A stretch of 62,174 bases of DNA from a bacterium (GCA_046076045.1 JBJTRI010000013.1:1-62174), one strand, 5' to 3'. Positions 14,634-19,110 are shown, counted from the stretch's first letter. A program made the numbers and translations. The notes: generated by a model not told the origin, from the letters alone.

Positions 14634-16655
14634 TCAGCGCGCCGTGCGCCGCGTGGGCTTCGCGCCGGGCCTCGGCGTGCGGGCCGCGGGCTTCGCGACG
14701 GGCTTGGGCGTGCGGGCCGCGGGCTTCGCGGCGGGCTTGGGCGCGCGGGCCGCGGGCTTCGCGCCGGGTTTGGGCGTGCGGGTCGCGGGCTTCGCGCCGG
14801 GCTTCGGCGTGCACGCCTCGGCCTTCGTGCCCGAGGGGGGGGTGCGCGGCGCGGTCGTCTTGCGCGCGGCGGTGCGAGCGTGCGGTGTGGGCTGCGTGTC
14901 CGGTGCCGACCCGGGTGCGCGTGCGCCCTTGCGGGGCCGGGCCAGCACGGGTTCGAACCGCGACCACGGCCGGGCGTTCAGCACGTCGGCGCGCGTGAGG
15001 CCGGCGCGGCGGGCCTGGAACACGCCCCAGCGCAGGTTGTCGAGCTGGCCGATCGAGTGCGCGTCGGTGTCGATCACGAACGCGCAGCCCTGTGCGCGTG
15101 CGATGCGGGCGTGCGCATCGGTGAGGTCGAGACGGTCGGGGGCGGCGTTGATCTCCATGGCCACGCCGTATGCGGCGGCCGCCGCGCTCACGCGCTCGAC
15201 GTCGAACGGCACCGCGGCGCGCGAGCCGATGAGCCGACCGGTGGGGTGGCCGAAGGCGTGCACCCACGGGTTGGCGAGCGCACGCAGCACGCGCTCGGTC
15301 GCGGCTTCGGGCTTCATGTCGAAGCGCGAGTGCAGGCTCACCACCACCCAGTCGAGCAGGGCGAGCGTCTCGTCGTCGAGGTCGAGTGCGCCGTCGCCCA
15401 GGATGTCCACCTCGAGTCCGTGCAGCACGCGAATGCCGGGGTGGCGCTCGCGGGCCGCGGCCACCTCCTTCACCGAGCGCCGCACGCGTGCGGCGTCGAA
15501 GCCGTTCGCCATCGCCAGCGCCTTGCTGTGCTCGGTGATCGCCACGTACTCGAGCCCGCGCGCCTCGGCGGCGGCGATCATGTCGTCCAGCGTGTCGCGG
15601 CCATCGCTGCGCGTCGTGTGCATGTGCAGGTCGCCGCGCAGGTCGTCGAGTTCGACGAGCACGGGCAGGCGACCCTCGGCGGCGGCCGCGATCTCGCCGT
15701 GTGCCTCGCGCAACTCGGGCGGGATCCAGTCGAGCCCGAGTGCGCGGTACACGTCGGCCTCGGTGCGCGAGGCCACCGTGCGGTCACCACGCGTGAGTCC
15801 GTACTCGTTCAGGCTCATGCCGCGCTCGAGCGCGATGCGGCGCAGCTCGATGTTGTGCTCCTTGGAGCCCGTGAAGTAGAGCAGCGCCGCCCCGAAGCCG
15901 TCCTCGGGCACCACGCGCAGGTCCACCTGCAGCCCGCGCTGCAGCCGCACGCTCGACTTGGTGTCGCCCCGTCCCAGCACGTCGGCCACATCGGCGTGCC
16001 GGGTGAACGCGTCCATGACCGCGTCGGCGTCGTGCGCGCACACCAGCACGTCGAGGTCCCCCACGGTGTCGCGTCGGCGGCGGAACGACCCGGCCAGTTC
16101 CACCTGGGTCACGCCGCGCACGGCACGCACGCGTTCGGCGAGGGCGTGCGCCAGCGGCCACGCCTCGGCCAGCAGCATGCGGCCCGAGAACTGCGCCGCG
16201 GTGGCGAGCGACTTGAGGACGCCGTGCTCGACCTTCTCGCCGAAGCCCGGTAGGTCGCGCAGTCGCCCCTCGCGCGCGGCCTTCTCCAGCGCCTCGCGCG
16301 TGCCGATGTGCAGCTGCGTCCACAGCGTGCGCACGCGCTTGGGCCCCAGACCCTGCAGGTCGGTGAACCCCACCACCTCGCCCGGCCATCGGACGGCGAG
16401 TTCGTCGAGCAGGGGGGTGGTTCCCGTCGCGACGAGGTCGCGCAGGTGCTGCGCGATGCCCTTGCCGATCCCCGGCAACTCCTCGAGAGCGCCCGGCGTG
16501 TCGGCGAGGTCGGCGATGCGGGTCTCGCACTGTTCGACGACGCGCGCACCCTCGCGCAGCGCACGCACGCGGAACGGGTTGGCGTCGTCGAGTTCCAGCA
16601 TGACGCCGAGCCGCGCGAGCGCGGCGGCCAGCGTGGCGTTGTCGGGACGGCTCAC
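14634..16655 (-). CDS. polX: DNA polymerase X family protein with PHP domain and a Lys/Pro/Ala-rich repetitive C-terminal tail
   Basis: 673 aa from the GTG at 16655, with a GTGA overlap onto the ligA stop. Helix-hairpin-helix regions (GIGKGIA, GLGPKR) and a PolX nucleotidyltransferase core ([17 protein letters not shown]). PHP motifs DLHMHT and ITEHS. Confidence 0.9.
14655..14819 (-). repeat. 5 x 33-bp in-frame tandem repeat inside the polX 3' end
   Basis: The unit GGGCTTCGCGNCGGGCYTSGGCGYGCGGGYCGC is repeated head-to-tail at 14655, 14688, 14721, 14754 and 14787. It encodes 11-aa units of the type [11 protein letters not shown]. Confidence 0.9.
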
Positions 16656-18700
16656 GACTTCGCCCCGACCCGCTCGAGGAACGTCGCCTCGTCGATCACC
16701 TCGATGCCCAGTCGGCGGGCGTCGTCCAGCTTGGAGCCCGCGCCCGGGCCGGCGACGACGAGCGTGACCTTCTTGGACACGCTGCCGGCCACGCGGGCGC
16801 CGTGGCGTTCCGCGAGTCGCTGCGCGTCGGGGCGCGGCATGGTCTCGAGCCCGCCCGTGAACACGACCGTGACGCCGTCGAGTACGCGCGGCCCCGCGGG
16901 GCGCTCCTCGGCCGTGGGCTTCACGCCCGCCTTGATGAGGCGGTCGAGCACCTTGGCGTTGCGGCGGTTGTCGAAGAACGCGTGCACGCTCTCGGCGACC
17001 TCGTCGCCGATGCCGTGGATGTGCATGAGGTCCTCGACCGAGGCCTCCCGCAGTGCGGCGAGCGATCCGAAGTGGTCGGCGAGCGTGCGCGCCACGGTCT
17101 CGCCCACGTGCTCGATCCCGAGCGCGAACAGGAAGCGGTCGAGCCGCGGCTTCTTGCTGGCCTCGAGCGCGCCGAGCAGGTTCTCGATGCTGCGTTCGGC
17201 GAAGCCCTCCAGCTCCACGAGATGGATGGGCGTGAGCTGGTAGAGGTCGGCCAGGTCGGCCACGAGTCGCTTGTCGAGCAGTTGCTTCACCGTCTTCTCG
17301 CCCAGCCCCGCGATGTCCATGGCCCCGCGCTGCGTGAAGTGCACGAGGTGGCGCTCGAGCTGCGCCGGGCAGGCGAGCCCGTTCGTGCAGCGGTGCGCCG
17401 CACCGGTGCGCTCGACCTCGGCGCCGCACACCGGGCACTTCGACGGCAGCTCGAAGCGCTTCGCACCCTGCGGACGATGCTCGGGGAGCACCTCCACGAC
17501 CTCGGGGATGACGTCGCCCGCCCTTCGCACGCGCACGGTGTCGCCGATGCGCACGTCCTTGCGGTCGAGTTCGTCCTGGTTGTGCAGCGTGGCGCGGCTC
17601 ACGGTGACACCCGAGACGTCCACCGGACGCAACTGCGCGACCGGCGTGAGCTTCCCGGTGCGACCCACCTGCACGACGATGTCGAGGACCTGCGTGATCT
17701 CCTCGCGCGGCGGGAACTTGAACGCCACCGCCCAGCGCGGCGACCTCGAACGCATACCGAGGCGGGTCTGCGCGGCGCGGTCGTCCACCTTGAGCACGAC
17801 CCCGTCGATCTCGTAGGGCAGCGCATCGCGCCGCTCGCGCAGGTCGGTGTGGAACGCGAGCGCCTCGGCGAGGCCGTGGCACCGGCGCACCCCGGACTCC
17901 ACGTGGAAACCCCACGCGGTGAGCCCCTCGAGGATGGCGTGCTGGCTCGCGAACGCCGCCTTGCCGCGCGGGGCGGGCTCCTGCGCCATGACGTCGTAGG
18001 CGAAGAAGTCGAGACGTCGGCTCGCGGTGACGGAGACGTCGAGTTGCCGCACGGTGCCCGCAGCGGCGTTGCGCGCGTTGGCGAACGGTTCCTCGCCGGC
18101 CTCGATCAGGCGCTTGTTCAACGCCTCGAACGCGGGCAACGGGATGAGCACCTCGCCACGGATGGCGATCGTCCCCTTCGAGGGCGGGCCCTCCTCGCGC
18201 AGTCGCAGCGGCACGGCGCGAATGGTGCGCAGGTTCTCGGTCACGTCCTCGCCGGTCTCGCCGTCGCCGCGCGTGGAGCCGCGCACGAACACGCCGTCCT
18301 CGTACACGAGCTCGATGGACAGGCCGTCGAACTTCGGCTCCGCCACGTACACGACGTCCTCGGCGAACAGCCCCTCGGCCAGCCCCAGTCCCTTGCGCAC
18401 GCGTTCGTCGAACTCGCGCACCTCGTCCTCGGCCATGAGCGAGTCGAGCGACAGCATGGGCCGTACGTGCTTCACCTTCTTGAAGCCCTCGCGCAGCCCG
18501 CCGCCCACGCGCTGCGTGGGGGAGTCGCTCGCACGCAGTTCGGGGTGTGCGGTCTCCAGTTCCACGAGTTCGCGCAGCAGCTTGTCGTAGGCCGCGTCGG
18601 AGATCGTGGGGGCGTCGAGGACGTAGTAGCGGTGGTCGTGCTCGCGGATCTCCGCGGCGAGCGCCGTGATGCGGCGGGCGGCGTCGGCGCGCGAGGTCAT
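16652..18700 (-). CDS. ligA: NAD-dependent DNA ligase
   Basis: 682 aa from the ATG at 18700. Contains the adenylation region, OB fold, Zn finger ([10 protein letters not shown]...CTN..CPAQ), HhH region and a C-terminal BRCT (VVFTGGL...[14 protein letters not shown]). Confidence 0.95.
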
Positions 18701-19110
18701 GCGCGCGACCCGCCGCGCTCGAGCACGCGCGCGTACTGCGCCGCGGTGAGCGGGATCACCGACAGGCGCGGCAGGCGCACCAGATCGGTGCCCGAGAGCT
18801 TCGCATCGGCCTTGAAGTCCGCAAGCGTCACCGGCTGGGGCAGCGCGCGCACGGGCTCCACGTCCACCACCACGAGGCGCTCGTCGTCGGCCTTCGGGTC
18901 GGGGTAGGGGCCGCGCATCACGCGCGCCATGCCGACCACCGCCTTCTCGCCGCCGGTGTGGTACACGAGCACGTGGTCGCCCGCCGCGAAGGTGCGCAGG
19001 TGCTTCAGGGCGAGCGCGTTGCTCACGCCCGACCAGACCGTCCGCTTGTCGCGGACGAGATCGGCGTAGGAGTATTCCGACGGTTCGGTCTTGAGGATCC
19101 AGTGGGCCAT
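18697..19110 (-). CDS. EVE domain (PUA-like) protein
   Basis: 137 aa. [18 protein letters not shown]...WSGV.N..A.KHLR....[18 protein letters not shown]...PYPDP is the typical standalone EVE pattern. Its stop overlaps the ligA start (ATGA at 18697-18700). Confidence 0.85.

Follow-up and report, generated by a model that had tools for sequence, protein, structure and literature searches.

Organization of the EVE-ligA-polX locus

The window, by which we mean the whole 62,174 nt stretch of bacterial DNA that was analyzed, has a G+C content of 72.9% and contains three consecutive minus-strand genes that encode an EVE protein, the NAD-dependent DNA ligase LigA, and the family X polymerase PolX. The genes and associated sites are as follows.

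14491-14520, no strand assigned: hairpin with a 13-bp GC stem, between polX and the convergent aldehyde dehydrogenase gene; probably a terminator in both directions
14634-16655, minus strand: PolX, third cistron, 673 aa, with a Pol-beta-like core and a PHP domain
14643-14854, minus strand: Lys/Pro/Ala-rich C-terminal tail of PolX, repeat-encoded in 11-aa units (from the translation and Tandem Repeats Finder)
16652-18700, minus strand: LigA, second cistron, 682 aa, NAD-dependent DNA ligase
18697-19110, minus strand: EVE, first cistron, 137 aa
19120-19125, minus strand: -10-like hexamer TAATTT, sigma-70-like, ending 9 nt 5' of the EVE ATG
19143-19148, minus strand: -35-like hexamer TTGTGG of the putative operon promoter, identified by motif conservation in relatives

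We re-read the ORFs and both junctions and found them as the first-pass annotation of this DNA had described them. The EVE sequence ends ...GGSRA-TGA, and its stop codon overlaps the ATG of ligA as ATGA (18697-18700); LigA ends ...GAKS-TGA, and its stop codon overlaps the GTG of polX as GTGA (16652-16655). The accompanying statement that the unit leaves no space for internal promoters holds between the genes, but on sequence alone promoters could still lie within the coding regions. This organization supports the assignment of EVE, ligA, and polX to a single, tightly coupled predicted transcription unit, and the geometry of the overlaps is such that translation would probably be coupled across them. 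The presence of a housekeeping ligase within an operon had been thought unusual, which is a weak claim because operons of model bacteria also include ligA (pcrA-ligA of B. subtilis is one).

Each of the three proteins is a canonical member of its family. LigA scored 855 bits against NF005932 (cut-off 369) and 794 bits against TIGR00575 (cut-off 444), and Pfam analysis revealed a complete architecture (Ia, adenylation, OB, Zn, HhH, and BRCT); the adenylation motif KFDG (within EPKFDG) can be seen in the translation. PolX scored 481 bits against NF006375 (cut-off 426) and aligned to T. thermophilus PolX (3au2) with E=1.7e-128, with its GDLDVLV, VDLRVV, and DLHMHT segments in register with GDLDFLV, VDLRVV, and DLQVHS of 3au2. 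These segments contain what we take to be the catalytic residues (the palm Asp triad and the PHP His-x-His), and by this alignment PolX is a canonical polymerase that has kept its catalytic aspartates and has an intact PHP nuclease/phosphoesterase domain.

A scan of positions 14300-19400 for sigma-70 consensus sequences found no promoter; a weaker, conserved promoter motif emerged from the aligned upstream regions of relatives. In the window it consists of TTGTGG, 17 nt, TAATTT, 9 nt, and the EVE ATG, and the TAATTT site is the sole AT-rich island of the window. The arrangement TTGnnn, 17-18 nt, TAnnnT, 6-10 nt (12 in two loci), and a start codon was present at 23 of 26 distinct loci in which EVE is the first gene, and the same TTGnnn-TAnnnT arrangement was present at 11 of 23 loci in which LigA is first. 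Overall, it was found at 34 of 49 distinct loci, compared with none of 2000 random control positions. The operon region of the window has one copy, immediately 5' of EVE, and none within the operon. We considered a Bacteroidetes-type -33/-7 promoter and discarded it, because the spacing and the TAnnnT element fit an ordinary -35/-10 promoter at least as well. TTGTGG/TAATTT would thus be the promoter of the operon, and its distance from the gene suggests a leaderless transcript that starts at, or a few nucleotides from, the EVE ATG.

At the other end of the operon, the strong hairpin previously noted after polX was located at 14491-14520, where it has a perfect 13-bp stem (GGCCCCGGGGACC / GGUCCCCGGGGCC) and a GCGA loop. 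It lies 113 nt past the polX stop codon and 22 nt past that of the convergent aldehyde dehydrogenase gene. Because no T-run follows this hairpin, we infer its terminator function rather than assert it. Similar GC hairpins lie 3' of polX in three relatives (L001, L081, and L087). The only terminator-like site in the scan of 14300-19400 was at 14409-14428, outside the operon.

ligA, polX, and EVE in related genomes

We surveyed 68 distinct loci anchored on LigA (identity of at least 64%). In 53 of the 55 informative loci, PolX lay directly 3' of LigA at a distance of no more than 85 nt. The two genes are thus adjacent, co-directional, and conserved in relatives, as in a PolX-ligase operon, and their adjacency throughout the lineage backs the earlier suggestion that PolX and the ligase form a gap-filling and sealing pair. 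EVE lay directly 5' of LigA in 31 of 57 informative loci: 25 of the 27 with a LigA identity of at least 73%, which form the window's own sub-clade, and 6 of the 30 with an identity of 64-72%, which form a deeper sub-clade. In an outgroup with LigA 49-57% identical, neither EVE (0/23) nor PolX (0/21) was found beside ligA. The triad is not limited to one genome; it recurs with an unchanged gene order in many related genomes, with junctions of -4 or +13 nt between EVE and LigA and of -4 to +44 nt between LigA and PolX where start codons could be resolved.

An obligate EVE-LigA-PolX module would include EVE wherever the ligA-polX pair is kept, but EVE was absent 5' of ligA in 26 of the 57 informative loci, at least 18 of which keep PolX. 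At the EVE-less loci, either the promoter abuts ligA or a remnant ORF of 30-45 codons retains the stop/start overlap with ligA. The remnant ORF at the EVE position of L118 encodes SSSFDRVKDKGTVSHRVSG, and remnants that keep an ATGA or GTGA overlap with ligA are found in L092, L101, L117, and L124. The similarity of the L091/L092 remnant to EVE is weak (E=0.36), and we accepted it on the basis of its position, the upstream promoter, the kept overlap with ligA, and the clearer remnants at other loci. In one relative, an MmeI-type restriction-modification gene is inserted between ligA and polX, and EVE is replaced by a 39-codon remnant ORF. EVE was deleted in place by several distinct routes.

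In the LigA tree, the EVE-positive loci of the deeper sub-clade are interspersed among EVE-negative loci, and this scatter, together with the remnants, points to an ancestral triad that has repeatedly lost EVE. Within the window's sub-clade, its near-constant presence, its intact invariant residues, and its junction of -4 or +13 nt indicate that EVE is under selection there and that its position is stable.

The wider region is also syntenic among relatives (the window is collinear with L001 from ~8.5 kb to 29 kb), and so part of the ligA-polX conservation could reflect inheritance rather than selection. Carried further, this would mean that all three genes were juxtaposed by chance in an ancestor and kept together by selection against insertions into the operon of an essential ligase, with no functional pairing. 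Such inertia would fit the recurrence of Memo, alpha/beta hydrolase, and aldehyde dehydrogenase neighbors in distant relatives, the absence of the linkage outside the lineage, and the lack of a universal PolX neighbor in the survey of Prostova et al. (PMC9226535). However, the flanks change while ligA and polX stay adjacent: PEMT comes and goes, and polX can be followed by inserted HisKA-RR/Hpt, PMT_2, or hypothetical genes. The MmeI-like insertion indicates that ligA and polX can be separated with both genes kept, but a break of this kind has been seen in a single lineage. In addition, PolX and ligase activities are biochemically complementary, and PolX operons have arisen independently with LigD and with ATP-dependent ligases (PMC9226535). 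We consider chance juxtaposition unlikely and prefer to view ligA-polX as a functional core.

That core shows no sign of being part of an NHEJ module at this locus, as no Ku or LigD gene was found within ~6-8 kb in the window's relatives. The genes found within that distance encode Memo, PEMT, aldehyde dehydrogenase, GSDH, alpha/beta hydrolase, MOSC, and HisKA-RR proteins.

The EVE protein and its neighborhoods

The EVE protein matches PF01878, of the PUA-like superfamily, over model positions 1-144 of 145 (E=6.5e-35; 120.7 bits, cut-off 23). The nearest solved structure is that of the alpha-proteobacterial protein RPA0253 (2gbs; E=2.9e-23), and there are also sequence matches to 1zce, 2eve, and THYN1. 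With the stand-alone EVE proteins RPA0253/2gbs, Atu2648/1zce, and PSPTO5229/2eve it shares a single domain of ~137-157 aa, strong sequence similarity, and vertical, slow evolution. Across 29 homologues, residues W26, Y50-H51-T52-G53, R112, and R115 do not vary, and W26 aligns with a Trp of 2gbs, consistent with a conserved aromatic pocket residue. The pocket residues are identical in ligA-linked and unlinked orthologues, which suggests that both probably bind one and the same general ligand.

The topology of the EVE tree tracks phyla, indicating a slow-evolving housekeeping type, and the ligA-linked proteins cluster with Eisenbacteria EVEs that are encoded elsewhere in the genome (L010, L028, and L060). 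Judged by its tree, its nearest solved structure, and the lack of a PADLOC match, the window EVE is a member of the slow-evolving housekeeping class and not of the nuclease-fused defense class. The class has been linked to tRNA and RNA (Bell et al., PMC7641849) and occurs in an alpha-proteobacterial TsaD-GpsA-YciI-EVE operon (Bell, Wolf and Koonin 2020, PMC7641849). The EVE domain of VcaM4I flips 5mC and 5hmC out of DNA (PMC7897488), which leaves room for a DNA-directed role of an EVE protein encoded beside repair genes. The window protein would act independently of LigA-PolX, with a modified base, in RNA or in DNA, as its most likely target.

From species-representative genomes of about ten phyla, we took the 80 closest EVE homologues and surveyed their loci with up to 10 kb of flank. 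Neighborhoods were annotated by six-frame ORF clustering, with Pfam searches on representatives; a simple GC-frame gene caller was dropped, because it mis-called shadow ORFs in DNA of 73% G+C. LigA adjoined EVE in seven loci, six of which also had PolX (the contig of the seventh stops inside ligA), and all seven belong to one Eisenbacteria-like lineage. Neither LigA nor PolX was found in up to 10 kb of flank at the other 73, which include other Eisenbacteria and a few contigs that were too short. The linkage thus extends beyond this genome, but not beyond a single Eisenbacteria-like lineage. No neighbor was common to EVE orthologues across phyla; the largest neighbor families were present at 14 of 81 loci and were phylum-specific, such as SSB in cyanobacteria and some Gemmatimonadota, and RelA/SpoT and a TsaD-family gene in Gemmatimonadota. 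In the last case the TsaD-family gene, of a family also represented in the TsaD-GpsA-YciI-EVE operon, is downstream of EVE. In another Eisenbacteria genome, the neighbors were a glycosyltransferase and YebC. The window locus differs from the reported contexts of slow-evolving EVE proteins (PMC7641849) in its ligA-polX partner and in having no adjacent tRNA-modification or heme/cytochrome c genes.

The first-pass annotation had proposed that EVE is an integral reader of modified or damaged bases that recruits the co-translated PolX and LigA, which would make the triad a module of three components dedicated to repair or to the tolerance of modifications. The tight coupling kept across many species-level relatives, the retention of EVE in 25/27 loci of the window's sub-clade, its invariant pocket, and the proven ability of EVE domains to bind 5mC and 5hmC in DNA by base flipping (PMC7897488) are all compatible with this proposal, and the SSB gene ~1 kb from the cyanobacterial EVE orthologue is a weak hint of a DNA context. 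It is nevertheless weakened, as well as unproven, by the lability of EVE (31/57 loci, and 6/30 in the deeper sub-clade), which has repeatedly been lost or moved while ligA-polX persists, leaving 18 loci with PolX and no EVE, as well as remnant ORFs. Moreover, EVE orthologues of about ten phyla and of other Eisenbacteria are not linked to a ligase or polymerase, linked and unlinked proteins share their pocket residues, the operon has no glycosylase or nuclease that would make a gap for PolX, and the EVE neighborhood census of Bell et al. (PMC7641849) reports no link to ligA-polX. We regard an obligate reader as rather improbable.

A role confined to the window's sub-clade is about as improbable. 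There, EVE would be an accessory of the pair that, as a base-flipping reader, recognizes a modified or damaged base or else an aberrant end (for instance, an adenylated nick) and then directs or licenses trimming and filling by PolX and sealing by LigA; relatives that no longer have it at the locus would have moved it elsewhere or acquired a substitute for its function.

The weakest reading, that EVE is the modification sensor of a type IV-like defense system whose ligase and polymerase repair self-damage, is close to refuted by the PADLOC search and the EVE tree, and we give it almost no credence: EVE domains often serve as sensors in systems of modification-dependent restriction (PMC7641849, PMC7897488), and one relative has an MmeI-like restriction-modification gene inside the operon, but that relative is among those that lost EVE, and the window protein is a slow-evolving, single-domain protein that tracks phylum phylogeny, gave no PADLOC match, is encoded among metabolic genes rather than in a defense island, and has LigA and PolX as its partners rather than a nuclease, McrB, or toxin. 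With EVE-HNH enzymes such as VcaM4I (PMC7897488) it shares the domain family and a conserved pocket that would accommodate a modified base once flipped; unlike VcaM4I, it has no fused or neighboring nuclease and is not fast-evolving.

A model for the operon and its relation to known systems

On balance, we think it probable that the locus is a lineage-specific, coupled, and likely leaderless operon built on a conserved ligA-polX core for the repair of nicks and gaps, with EVE as an optional first cistron. In this model, the host is an Eisenbacteria-like bacterium of 73% G+C. By analogy with characterized PolX enzymes, the task of PolX would be to trim 3' ends that are blocked and to fill in short gaps; LigA, the ordinary NAD-dependent ligase of the cell made from the shared message, would then seal the nick. 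EVE, inherited vertically and evolving slowly, would be a base-pocket protein expressed together with the pair but not needed by it, and would have been deleted or moved many times while ligA and polX stayed together. As the transcript probably begins at the first start codon, ribosomes would load at the first ORF and reach ligA and polX by stop/start re-initiation, which would account for the ligA-overlapping remnant ORFs in some EVE-less relatives. We find no support for a new repair machine made of three components.

Operons that pair PolX with other ligases (LigD or ATP-dependent enzymes) have been described by Prostova et al. (PMC9226535). Common to those operons and the one analyzed here are a PHP-bearing family X polymerase encoded co-directionally beside a DNA ligase, an implied sequence in which gaps are filled or ends processed before the nick is sealed, and an association that is class- or lineage-specific rather than universal. 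The window operon differs in having a canonical, presumably replicative, NAD-dependent LigA in place of LigD or an ATP-dependent ligase, no Ku nearby, a canonical PolX with its catalytic aspartates kept, and, often, EVE as the first cistron. Our PolX homologue search returned only close relatives (at least 68% identity), and the PolX contexts in distant phyla are those of the literature.

If the core of this reading is true, an uncultured lineage couples its only recognizable NAD-dependent ligase to PolX in one message, and LigA joins the ligases known to pair with PolX. In eukaryotic short-patch base excision repair, Pol beta fills a gap of one to a few nucleotides and a DNA ligase seals it, the two being linked by the scaffold XRCC1. 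The ligA-polX coupling would be an operon-level counterpart of this hand-off, achieved by co-transcription in an operon rather than by a scaffold. Operons with EVE, with a remnant of it, or without it form a natural series that could be used to probe the function of housekeeping EVE proteins, and to test how leaderless, overlap-coupled operons sustain downstream translation.

The C-terminal tail of PolX is variable. In the window, its coding repeat has a 33-nt period and 5.4 copies (14655-14831; 88% matches by Tandem Repeats Finder). The length of the tail differs between relatives, whose PolX proteins are 572 to 670 aa long.

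Organization of the EVE-ligA-polX unit

The three ORFs, both overlaps, and the hairpin reported in the first-pass annotation were all recovered, and the unit can be laid out as follows:

19148-19143 and 19125-19120, minus strand: TTGTGG and TAATTT elements of the operon promoter motif, ending 9 nt before the EVE ATG (19110)
18697-19110, minus strand: EVE ORF, 137 aa, C-terminus ...GGSRA-TGA
16652-18700, minus strand: ligA ORF, 682 aa, C-terminus ...GAKS-TGA
14634-16655, minus strand: polX ORF, 673 aa, GTG start
14643-14854, minus strand: PolX C-terminal tail, ~100 aa of 11-residue Lys/Pro/Ala-rich repeats (33-nt tandem repeat, 5.4 copies)
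14491-14520, between the polX stop and the convergent aldehyde dehydrogenase stop: GC hairpin, perfect 13-bp stem, GCGA loop

The EVE stop and the ligA ATG share ATGA at 18697-18700, and the ligA stop and the polX GTG share GTGA at 16652-16655. GC hairpins were also found 3' of polX in L001, L081, and L087 (L-numbers denote loci retrieved in our surveys), also where the following gene runs in the same direction.

A consensus promoter scan detected no standard promoter, and the sole terminator-like site that it returned (14409-14428) lies outside the operon. The promoter motif was found by aligning the DNA upstream of EVE across relatives, and consists of TTGnnn, 17–18 nt, TAnnnT, 6–10 nt, and the start codon. 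This geometry was present in 23 of 26 distinct loci in which EVE is the first cistron and in 11 of 23 in which ligA is first, two of these loci having a 12-nt gap; 2000 random control positions yielded no instance. A stricter form occurs three times in the window (0.09 expected), once in the operon region. A -10 element that ends 6–10 nt ahead of the start codon corresponds to the layout of leaderless mRNAs, and we infer that the EVE transcript is leaderless. The transcription unit would thus run from the promoter through EVE, ligA, and polX to the hairpin, with promoter, translational coupling, and terminator all predicted. Another promoter-like copy (TTGCAG...TATTTT, 38087-38113, minus strand) points away from a cobalamin riboswitch at 38137-38321 on the plus strand (RF00174, 83.6 bits).

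The EVE protein consists of one EVE domain (PF01878, E=6.5e-35, full model covered). Its closest solved relative is Rhodopseudomonas palustris RPA0253 (2gbs, E=2.9e-23); other stand-alone EVE proteins and human THYN1 rank next. LigA is complete: it scores 855 bits to NF005932 (cut-off 369) and carries Ia, adenylation, OB, Zn-finger, HhH, and BRCT domains. PolX matches the canonical profile (NF006375, 481 bits against a cut-off of 426) and aligns end to end with Thermus thermophilus PolX (3au2, E=1.7e-128), with the palm motifs GDLDVLV and VDLRVV and the PHP motif DLHMHT in register. The profile match and the aligned motifs place PolX, as judged from its sequence, in the polymerase-competent class and not in the "altered" exonuclease-only class defined by Prostova et al. 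(PMC9226535). The tail of the window PolX is similar to histone-H1-like DNA-binding tails; among relatives, PolX ranges from 572 to 670 aa and the C-terminal tail varies in length.

Distribution of the linkage

We scanned GTDB representatives (one genome per species) with an EVE homologue alignment and inspected the closest 80 loci with up to 10 kb of flank. LigA lies directly downstream of EVE in seven of the 80, and PolX follows in the same order in six; the seventh contig, L004, breaks off within ligA. All seven have the locus arrangement of the window; by record titles, from which all lineage labels were taken, four are Candidatus Eisenbacteria and the other three are unlabelled. Exact protein matches led to further triads in which each junction has a 4-nt overlap. 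The neighborhood survey suggested in the first-pass annotation thus shows that the triad recurs, and confinement to this genome, which that annotation had named as counting against its proposal, does not apply.

The remaining 73 loci had neither LigA nor PolX in the retrieved flank, a few of the contigs being too short to inform. They come from Gemmatimonadota, Cyanobacteria, Planctomycetota, Acidobacteriota, Chloroflexota, Binatia, Deltaproteobacteria-labelled MAGs, Ignavibacteria, and Bacteroidota, and include three further Eisenbacteria, in one of which EVE follows a glycosyltransferase and faces yebC and in another of which it faces an outer-membrane barrel gene. Clustering of six-frame ORFs within 4 kb of EVE at 81 loci revealed no neighbor shared across phyla; the biggest families reached 14 of the 81 loci and each was phylum-specific.

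Among these neighbors, an SSB gene lies ~1 kb upstream on the strand of EVE in cyanobacteria (L007, L022, L023, L030, L037, L039, L058, and L074) and ~3.7 kb downstream, again on the same strand, in Gemmatimonadota. The Gemmatimonadota loci also have RelA/SpoT before EVE and a TsaD-family gene ~2 kb after it, which is reminiscent of the alpha-proteobacterial TsaD-EVE operon. L087 (GCA_035500415.1) is labelled Candidatus Acidoferrales and has the gene order of L004, L009, L018, and L026, labelled Candidatus Eisenbacteria; one or more of these labels or bin assignments must be doubtful.

Because LigA is universal, it served as the anchor for a metagenome scan, which like the EVE scan covered the best 80 loci (LigA identity from 84% down to 49%). 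Pooling metagenome and genome loci gave 68 distinct loci with LigA identity of at least 64%.

Table. Neighbors of ligA by LigA identity to the window
LigA identity 73% or more: EVE directly upstream, 25/27
LigA identity 64-72%: EVE directly upstream, 6/30
All loci at 64% or more: EVE directly upstream, 31/57; PolX directly downstream, 53/55
Outgroup, LigA identity 49-57%: EVE upstream, 0/23; PolX downstream, 0/21

The two exceptions to ligA-polX adjacency are L129 and a locus with an MmeI-family insertion, where PolX is still found downstream. In a LigA tree (neighbor-joining without support values, as are all our trees), the window's sub-clade is near-uniformly EVE-positive, and its sister sub-clade mostly lacks EVE, with EVE-positive loci interspersed.

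Loss here refers to the ligA locus only. At loci lacking EVE, the genes upstream (Memo, PEMT) are frequently unchanged, and the gap before ligA is ~200–260 nt versus ~480 nt. Some of these loci have the promoter motif 6–9 nt before the ligA start, which would make ligA a leaderless first cistron; others have a longer leader; and others have a 30–45-codon ORF after the promoter that overlaps ligA by ATGA or GTGA. Several of the short ORFs are still similar to the EVE N-terminus: L118 encodes SSSFDRVKDKGTVSHRVSG, and the L092 ORF has SSYADL at the corresponding EVE position. Read at the sequence level, these remnants point to an ancestor with EVE upstream of ligA and to several losses through different deletions. 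In loci with a surviving remnant, the overlap with ligA is the feature kept. A single relative (L091/L092) combines a remnant (a 39-codon ORF) with a 971-aa MmeI-family (type IIL) restriction-modification gene inserted between ligA and polX:

L091 3099-6014 (same in L092): MmeI-family gene, overlapping both ligA and polX

Four EVE-less loci (L129, L126, L125, and L116) share a DNA element, approximately TTC.AGTGGTTTCTCAAGTCC, about 10–50 nt before the ligA start and ~190 nt downstream of the promoter motif. It is similar to the EVE 5' end (CACTGGATCCTCAAGACC) with no single reading frame kept, and could be a decaying EVE remnant or a regulatory element.

Class of the EVE protein and probable role of the unit

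A tree of EVE proteins recovers phyla, and all LigA-linked EVEs cluster with the unlinked Eisenbacteria EVEs, which argues for vertical inheritance, with the gene having changed its genomic position inside this lineage. The residues that are invariant across 29 homologues (W26, Y50-H51-T52-G53, R112, R115, and others) are common to linked and unlinked EVEs, and the ligand is therefore probably the same. Such proteins form a slow-evolving class linked to tRNA modification and respiration in alpha-proteobacteria and to ZapA/6S RNA in beta-/gamma-proteobacteria (Bell, Wolf, Koonin, PMC7641849), in an article whose text mentions neither LigA nor PolX. As the EVE pocket of VcaM4I can accommodate a flipped DNA 5mC or 5hmC (PMC7897488), DNA binding by the slow-evolving class is possible by analogy.

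We favor, with moderate confidence, the reading that ligA-polX is the conserved functional unit and that EVE is a co-expressed first cistron with a putative base-binding function of its own, whose ORF would also serve to load ribosomes. One message would encode PolX, to fill short gaps and trim 3' ends through its PHP domain, and LigA, to seal the nick; gap filling and 3'-end trimming are established roles of PolX enzymes. Loading of ribosomes at the first ORF of a probably leaderless message would explain why remnant ORFs are retained. That the arrangement is purely inherited, with no functional pairing whatever, seems unlikely: the synteny is broad, but the flanks vary around a constant ligA-polX pair, and PolX-ligase operons occur independently elsewhere. 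We also doubt, a shade more strongly, the first-pass proposal that EVE is a reader recruiting repair by PolX and LigA. Retention of EVE in the window's sub-clade and the precedent of base flipping in DNA by EVE domains speak for it; however, EVE was lost repeatedly, its orthologues are unlinked elsewhere, and the operon encodes no lesion-excising enzyme. A defence role is very improbable, and a search of all three proteins against defence-system profiles matched only the LigA BRCT domain.

PolX is known to adjoin LigD in Alphaproteobacteria and an ATP-dependent ligase in Methanomicrobia (PMC9226535), whereas the partner in the window is NAD-dependent LigA, with EVE as the first cistron. This combination is mentioned neither in the neighborhood analyses of PMC9226535 and PMC7641849 nor in the literature retrieved by full-text searches. 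ZapA is a frequent operon neighbor of PolX in Bacilli and Clostridia (PMC9226535) and of stand-alone EVE proteins in beta-/gamma-proteobacteria (PMC7641849), an indirect EVE-PolX context link that seems to have drawn no comment in the literature.

Upstream of the operon, a PEMT/ICMT-family methyltransferase gene (19174-19749, plus strand) diverges from EVE at a distance of 63 nt. Some relatives have this gene; in those without it, a Memo-family gene (PF01875) reads into EVE in the same direction, and the EVE promoter motif is retained all the same. Farther along, an ORF at 21228-21920 (plus strand), conserved in relatives, ends in a C-terminal Asp/Glu run of ~45 residues (...DDDEDDDDLDDDDEDDDEDEDD...).
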